Shown here piece by piece: positions 11,199 through 12,340 of a stretch of 64,000 nucleotides of DNA. The DNA lies in the NCBI RefSeq assembly GCF_041886205.1, contig NZ_CP169029.1. One strand, 5' to 3'. A program made the translations under genes and the position numbers. Positions within the stretch are counted from its first letter, which is position 1, and each line of letters opens with the position of its first letter. Below the pieces are notes generated by a model. The model saw nothing but the letters and a program-made list of their open reading frames with translations, did no database searches and was not told the DNA's origin. The DNA is from Escherichia coli (lineage in GTDB: Bacteria; Pseudomonadota; Gammaproteobacteria; Enterobacterales; Enterobacteriaceae).

Positions 11199-12340
11199 GT
11201 CTGAATATGTTCTGGTTTTTACCGACCCACGGTGACGGACATTATCTGGGAACGGAAGAAGGTTCACGCCCGGTTGATCACGGTTATCTGCAACAAATTG
11301 CGCAAGCGGCGGATCGTCTGGGCTATACCGGTGTGCTGATCCCAACGGGGCGATCGTGTGAAGATGCGTGGTTGGTTGCCGCATCGATGATCCCGGTGAC
11401 GCAGCGGCTGAAGTTTCTTGTCGCCCTGCGCCCCAGCGTAACCTCACCTACCGTTGCCGCTCGCCAGGCCGCCACGCTTGACCGTCTCTCGAATGGTCGT
11501 GCGTTGTTTAATCTGGTCACAGGCAGCGATCCACAAGAGCTGGCAGGCGACGGCGTATTCCTTGATCATAGCGAGCGCTACGAAGCCTCGGCGGAATTTA
11601 CCCAGGTCTGGCGACGTTTATTGCAGGGAGAAACCGTCGATTTCAACGGTAAACATATTCATGTGCGCGGAGCAAAACTGCTCTTCCCGGCGATTCAACA
11701 GCCGTATCCGCCACTTTACTTTGGCGGATCGTCAGATGTCGCCCAGGAGTTGGCGGCAGAACAGGTTGATCTCTACCTCACCTGGGGCGAACCTCCGGAA
11801 CTGGTTAAAGAGAAAATCGAACAAGTGCGGGCAAAAGCTGCCGCGCATGGACGCAAAATTCGTTTCGGTATTCGTCTGCATGTGATTGTTCGTGAAACTA
11901 ACGACGAAGCGTGGCTGGCCGCCGAGCGGTTAATCTCGCATCTTGATGATGAAACTATCGCCAAAGCACAGGCCGCATTCGCCCGGACGGATTCCGTAGG
12001 ACAACAGCGGATGGCGGCGTTACATAACGGCAAGCGCGACAATCTGGAGATCAGCCCCAATTTATGGGCGGGCGTTGGCTTAGTGCGCGGCGGTGCCGGG
12101 ACGGCGCTGGTGGGCGATGGTCCTACGATCGCCTCGCGAATCAACGAATACGCTGCACTTGGCATCGACAGTTTTGTGCTTTCGGGCTATCCGCATCTGG
12201 AAGAAGCGTATCGGGTCGGCGAGTTGCTGTTCCCACATCTGGATGTCGCCATTCCGGAAATTCCCCAGCCGCAGCCGCTGAATCCGCAAGGCGAAGCGGT
12301 GGCGAATGATTTTATCCCCCGTAAAGTCGCGCAAAGCTAA
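11195..12340 (+). CDS. ssuD: FMNH2-dependent alkanesulfonate monooxygenase SsuD
   Basis: 381-aa ORF; start overlaps ssuA stop (ATGA). Confidence 0.95.

Follow-up and report, generated by a model that had tools for sequence, protein, structure and literature searches.

RecBCD loads at DNA double-strand ends, then unwinds the DNA while degrading it. When it approaches a crossover hotspot instigator (Chi) site from the 3' side, Chi is recognised as single-stranded DNA in RecC; the nuclease is then attenuated and RecA is put on the 3'-ended strand, turning degradation into recombinational repair. RecBCD nicks the DNA 4-6 nt 3' of Chi before it loads RecA (PMC5041463; PMC10025158). The octamer alone is sufficient for Chi activity, which also depends on nucleotides 4-7 of the 3' flank, the best tetramers being AAAA, AAAG, AAGG and AAGA (PMC5041463). 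The E. coli genome contains about 1000 Chi sites (PMC5041463), about one per 5 kb (PMC8022716), which are enriched in the core genome and polarised on the leading strand (PMC8022716; PMC10025158). Two other octamers are relevant for comparison. The variant GCTGGCGG, one base away from canonical Chi, is a candidate secondary Chi in Enterobacteriaceae (PMC8022716), and the FtsK-orienting polar sequences (KOPS, GGGNAGGG) are likewise a strand-polarised E. coli 8-mer, but they are read by FtsK and Chi by RecBCD.

We analysed a 64-kb stretch of E. coli DNA, hereafter the window, for its complement of Chi sites. The octamer found there is identical to that of E. coli Chi and the host species is the same; density, sense-strand preference and location in core genes all match, as does the direction of the leading-strand skew, and nothing substantive differs, the density in the window being slightly above the genome mean.

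Twenty Chi octamers in the ycbX-dmsA segment

Homology and synteny identify the window as the core segment of E. coli that runs from ycbX to dmsA, native ameliorated chromosome. It corresponds in reverse complement to positions 943,174-1,007,179 of K-12 MG1655. We checked each reading frame in the window and found the genes in the same order, from ycbX to dmsA, as at 943-1007 kb in K-12: ycbX, zapC, pyrD, the ycbF-elfA fimbrial operon, ssuEADCB, pepN, pncB, asnS, ompF, aspC, gloC, mepK, ldtD, mukBEF, cmoM, elyC, ycbJ, kdsB, ycaR, ycaQ, lpxK, msbA, ycaI, ihfB, rpsA, cmk, ycaL, aroA, serC, ycaP, ycaO, focA, pflBA, ycaK, ycaN, ycaM, ycaD, ycaC and dmsCBA. The identity of the window to E. coli chromosomes reaches 99.9-100%, with 100.0% in strain 6EVA over the 25 kb at 20001-45000, a region covered at 80% or more in 5405 of 5426 complete E. 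coli genomes (megablast). The recBCD genes lie outside the window, and the presence of a Chi-recognising RecBCD in the host is expected from its assignment to E. coli. An Rfam scan of the window retrieved only two matches, neither of them related to Chi: a PyrD leader (RF02373, 97.9 bits) at 2407-2480 on the minus strand, upstream of pyrD as expected, and a REP-derived naRNA4 (82 bits) at 13953-14031 on the minus strand, in the ssuB-pepN spacer.

An exact-string search of both strands found 20 copies of the octamer that defines enterobacterial, RecBCD-recognised Chi (GCTGGTGG), seven on the plus and 13 on the minus strand, which amounts to 0.31 per kb or one per 3.2 kb. The original prediction had placed one exact copy on the plus strand inside ssuD, and both the search and direct reading of the sequence confirmed 5'-GCTGGTGG-3' at 12106-12113 (K-12 coordinate ~995077; surrounding sequence ...gacggcGCTGGTGGgcgatgg...; 3' flank gcgatgg). 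This focal site is in sense within ssuD (11195-12340, plus strand) and is read in the phase gcG CTG GTG Ggc, so that it extends from the third base of codon 304 (GCG) through Leu305 and Val306 to the first base of a GGC codon. The four approximate positions that had also been proposed for the complement CCACCAGC (3170, 29397, 38283 and 40335) all turned out to be real, with true starts at 3172, 29401, 38283 and 40342, respectively 2, 4, 0 and 7 nt away. That list of five sites was therefore sound in each entry and incomplete as a census, since 15 of the 20 had been missed.

All 20 sites lie within coding sequence, 15 of them on the sense strand. Ten of the latter have the phase xCTG-GTGx (Leu-Val). 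Eight of these are on the minus strand, which is the leading strand (see below), in ycbF (3172..3179), mukB (29401..29408), mukF (32695..32702), lpxK (38600..38607), msbA (40342..40349), aroA (47179..47186) and, twice, ycaM (58888..58895 and 59827..59834); the other two are the focal site and one in ssuC (12810..12817), both on the plus, lagging strand. Three sites have the phase GCT-GGT-GGx, in elfG (4438..4445, minus, leading; GCT GGT GGa, Ala-Gly-Gly), ycaO (51960..51967, plus, lagging; GCT GGT GGc) and dmsB (63627..63634, minus, leading; GCT GGT GGc), and two the phase xGC-TGG-TGG, in ycaQ (37320..37327; gGC TGG TGG, Trp-Trp) and lpxK (38283..38290; TGG TGG), both minus and leading. The five antisense sites are found opposite aspC (22492..22499, minus, leading; Pro-Pro-Ala codons) and, on the plus, lagging strand, opposite pepN (14458..14465; Ala-Thr-Ser codons), mukB (30553..30560 and 30638..30645, a pair 85 bp apart) and msbA (39935..39942).

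The fimbrial chaperone gene ycbF (2523-3232, minus strand) carries a 1-bp homopolymer deletion at 3020-3025 (G7 in K-12, G6 here) that breaks the frame and leaves a longest open reading frame of 169 aa. Three origins are conceivable: a genuine pseudogene, slipped-strand variation, or a mistake in the assembly. The Chi site of this gene, kept in K-12 and in strain MB53, is in the true upstream frame, the frameshift lying further downstream.

Abundance and strand polarity

Several null models were compared with the observed number of Chi octamers. The simplest reading is that an 8-mer searched for on both strands, 128 kb in all, finds matches by chance and that these have no significance. About two matches per window are indeed expected in this way, and a single verified site proves nothing alone. 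However, dinucleotide shuffles yielded 2.33 +/- 1.70 copies (largest 9; 0 of 100 reached 20), and under Markov models of orders 0-1, with ~2 copies expected, the Poisson probability of 20 is ~1e-13, so that this reading is already refuted and can be given practically no credence. Chi ties for rank 2 among the 24,003 strand-symmetrised octamers of the window and is over-represented with respect to sequence composition, a characteristic property of Chi. The excess is still 1.9- to 4-fold under Markov models of orders 2 to 5, which predict 5.0, 8.0, 6.9 and 10.4 copies, respectively. A model of order 6 (16 expected against 20 observed) removes it and was rejected as uninformative, because in 64 kb it is the Chi sites themselves that largely determine the 7-mer counts.

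A more serious rival is that the octamers are a mere by-product of coding, with no selection acting on Chi itself, and are generated by the frequency of the peptides Leu-Val, Ala-Gly-Gly and Trp-Trp and by the preference for the codons CTG, GTG and GGT; RecBCD would respond to the sites all the same, but neither their number nor their skew would carry an adaptive signal. The location of every site in coding sequence, the predominance of sense sites and of the CTG-GTG phase among them, and the turnover of sites between strains, with a conservation no better than that of other 8-mers in the same genes (see below), are all in its favour. So are codon-preserving shuffles, which lift the expectation from 2.3 to 6.0 copies and reproduce the 65% strand skew. 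Yet these same shuffles are what this reading fails to pass: shuffling the codon order within each gene gave 5.98 +/- 2.22 copies and shuffling synonymous codons, with proteins and per-gene codon usage fixed, 6.04 +/- 2.07, and in 2000 replicates per model the maximum was 14, none reaching the observed 20. These codon nulls are slightly conservative, as ycbF and its Chi were kept unshuffled. Codon usage, through sense-strand CTG-GTG (Leu-Val), thus raises the expectation from ~2 to ~6, and a ~3-fold (3.3) excess stays. Together with the excess left by Markov orders 2-5, and with genome-wide studies that find Chi enriched in core DNA beyond oligonucleotide composition (PMC8022716 and work cited there), this speaks against a purely coding origin. 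Because the ~3-fold excess persists, the by-product reading is refuted as a complete explanation, and we regard it as improbable. We consider it highly likely that the 20 octamers are ordinary Chi sites of a core E. coli chromosome segment; their ~3-fold excess over the codon expectation would result from selection in core DNA, as published genome-wide work proposes.

The window is not exceptional for its species. Its 20 copies compare with ~14 (13.9) expected from the E. coli genome mean, which is not significantly high (P=0.07), and the homologous K-12 interval has 19, split 13:6. We detected no unusual Chi deserts (largest gap 8.0 kb, P=0.89) and no unusual clusters (the smallest spacing, 85 bp in the mukB pair, has a chance P=0.40 for <=85 bp). 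The 18 kb between 4446 and 22491 that lack a leading-strand Chi are not unusual either (P=0.19), and owe this lack to the mutation of two K-12 sites in this lineage. The placement of the sites is consistent with random spacing.

The region at 0.94-1.01 Mb of K-12 belongs to the right replichore, where the K-12 plus strand is the leading one. The window is inverted relative to K-12; its minus strand is therefore the leading strand, and forks run from 64000 towards 1. In agreement with this, the GC skew of the plus strand is negative almost throughout, with the exception of 10-16 kb, where plus-strand genes dominate. All five KOPS in the window (1238, 12881, 41159, 59733 and 62902) are on the minus strand, like the majority of the Chi sites, and, as they all point one way, they fix the replichore orientation independently of GC skew. 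With 5 copies against 4.7 expected, KOPS are not over-represented and constitute an almost pure polarity signal, whereas Chi is here mainly an abundance signal. The variant GCTGGCGG occurs in 15 copies against 2.8 expected, split 12:3 in favour of the leading (minus) strand and thus more skewed than Chi; exact matches on the minus strand include those at 28813, 31777, 32752, 33479 and 33519.

Replication is co-oriented with 13 of the 20 Chi sites (65%). The remaining seven, which point the other way and form the minority, include the focal ssuD site. The comparison of strand bias with replication direction suggested by the original prediction held in direction and not in significance, as the 13:7 split differs significantly neither from 0.5 (p=0.26) nor from 0.75 (p=0.31). 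About 70% of coding bases belong to minus-strand genes, and the codon shuffles distribute their Chi as 2.11 on the plus and 3.87 on the minus strand, that is, 65% on the minus strand, the same proportion as observed. The polarity of Chi in the window is fully accounted for by gene orientation and sense-strand codon bias and, since the shuffles predict the skew entirely, the window provides no independent evidence for replication-oriented selection. The excess over the codon expectation is approximately equal on both strands (7 against 2.1 lagging, 13 against 3.9 leading). One could go further and propose that selection on Chi is orientation-independent genome-wide, with the leading-strand skew as a passive effect of gene orientation and not of selection for fork repair. 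We hold this to be very doubtful; if true, it would be in line with the repair of two-ended breaks, or with Chi as a self mark that protects against degradation by RecBCD.

Native DNA and turnover of sites

The original prediction had taken its Chi sites as support for a core enterobacterial rather than foreign origin. This origin is borne out by homology and synteny and by the full count of 20, but the evidence then at hand, one verified and four unverified sites, could not have told core and foreign DNA apart: a density of five per 64 kb is uninformative because it is close to the codon null (6.0) and below that of prophages. We used as foreign comparator the K-12 cryptic prophages Rac, e14 and CP4-6, which together contain 10 Chi in 72.6 kb (0.14 per kb, or 8.8 per 64 kb). 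The window, at 0.31 per kb, is ~2.3-fold denser (rate test, p=0.04), so the higher density in core than in acquired DNA that characterises Chi is observed here, with a modest contrast. A density or skew like that of horizontally acquired DNA, named at the outset as the observation that would speak against core origin, was not seen in the window, where the density is core-like. For core status, direct homology is a much stronger argument than Chi density. There is also a lesson of method: one Chi, or five per 64 kb, tells nothing about origin, and only the full count set against codon-aware nulls is informative.

Might the window as a whole, or just the surroundings of the focal site, nevertheless have arrived by horizontal transfer and carry Chi by coincidence? 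The stretch from elfG to ssuA (~4-11 kb) has a lower G+C content (0.45-0.48) and only 86-94% identity to K-12, the window contains no Chi between 4446 and 12105, and some Chi occur in the K-12 prophages too. Against this, all the genomes examined have the elf and ssu genes in this position, and the segment 9000-16000 is covered at 80% or more in 5276 of the 5426 complete E. coli genomes (megablast). As for the Chi gap of 7.7-8.0 kb, it is unremarkable by the maximum-gap probability given above (0.89), and K-12 and three other strains do carry a Chi within the stretch, at the window-equivalent of 7891. The divergence is what allelic variation, or homologous recombination, would produce at a conserved locus and is not that of an inserted island; acquisition of this DNA from elsewhere is extremely unlikely.

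Over ~4000-11000 (elfG, elfC, elfD, elfA, ssuE and ssuA) identity to K-12 falls to 86-94%, against ~99% elsewhere in the window, and merely 18 of the 5463 records matching 9000-16000 do so at 99% identity or more. These sequence comparisons point to a conserved locus that here has a putative block of rare, divergent alleles; the divergence of this block probably comes from recombination or from diversifying selection on fimbrial genes.

Some intergenic spacers vary as well. The one between ssuB and pepN (13908-14112) contains an array of REP/BIME-type palindromic repeats absent from K-12, where the spacer measures 42 bp; positions 13884-14110 have no K-12 counterpart, and it is because of this array that the megablast search with 9000-16000 matched ~24 places per genome. 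In strain KE40, IS1397 is inserted in this spacer. In the aspC-gloC spacer (~22853-22863) K-12 has ~160 bp more than the window and strain O26:H11 11368 an IS621; this intergenic spot is variable and probably REP-associated. Strain MB53 has an IS4-family (ISVsa5/IS10-like) insertion, absent from the window, in the ycaM-ycaD spacer (60137-60153 region), and strain ABW_A19 one of the same family between ycaO and focA.

We followed the Chi sites across eight E. coli genomes (K-12, MB53, O26:H11 11368, 136, ABW_A19, KE40, 190693 and E57), whose overall identity to the window is 97.2-99.4%. The focal site is intact in all eight, and 17 of the 20 sites are common to the window and K-12. Six are polymorphic (12810, 37320, 38283, 47179, 58888 and 63627), of which 12810, 58888 and 63627 are lineage-specific gains relative to K-12. 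At 12810, K-12, 136 and ABW_A19 have GTTGGTGG and O26 has TCTGGTGG; at 58888, K-12 and MB53 read ACTGGTGG on the Chi strand; at 63627, K-12 reads GCTGGCGG on the Chi strand. The lpxK site at 38283 is lost in 190693 and the aroA site at 47179 in KE40 and E57. Conversely, two K-12 sites are absent from the window, at the equivalents of 7891 and 16155. Where some genomes have Chi, the window itself shows one-mismatch octamers at 7891 (ACTGGTGG), 16155 (GCTGGTTG) and 10262 (GCTGGCGG, against GCTGGTGG in strains 136 and ABW_A19), so that two polymorphic positions, 10262 and 63627, swap GCTGGCGG and GCTGGTGG between genomes.

In MB53 (L002, ~5320) the ycaQ site (37320-37327) is lost. The octamer there reads GCTGGTGA, with TGG TGG changed into TGG TGA, so that one SNP both abolishes Chi and creates an internal stop that makes ycaQ a pseudogene; gene and Chi are both intact in the window.

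We found no signal of site-specific purifying selection: K-12 keeps 17 Chi sites against 17.7 expected from 8-mers of the same genes, and in six other genomes 14 are kept against 12.4-13.6 expected from random same-gene 8-mers. Chi sites thus show turnover, with no detectable site-specific constraint in this small sample of eight genomes.

Predicted activity and significance

According to the literature on E. coli Chi (PMC5041463), the sites in the window would be expected to stimulate recombination and to be nicked by RecBCD in an orientation-dependent manner, 4-6 nt 3' of the octamer. RecBCD that travels from a collapsed fork back in the direction of oriC would be halted by the 13 sites on the minus strand; enzymes heading for the terminus, as they would from the second end of a two-ended break, would be halted by the seven on the plus strand, the focal site in ssuD among them. 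Individual sites probably differ in activity. None of the 20 has one of the tetramers AAAA, AAAG, AAGG or AAGA at 3' flank positions 4-7, and the idea that the window contains 'super-Chi' sites was rejected on this basis. The aspC site at 22492 is the sole one with four purines at these positions (AGAG), and the two sites in ycaM, 58888 (TTCT) and 59827 (TTTT), have pyrimidine-rich 3' flanks resembling disfavoured ones.

The Chi sites of the window are textbook Chi/RecBCD biology, already known, and their value hardly goes beyond quality control. The analysis confirms that this DNA is native E. coli chromosome and establishes the direction in which it is replicated, and so provides context for other findings in the window.
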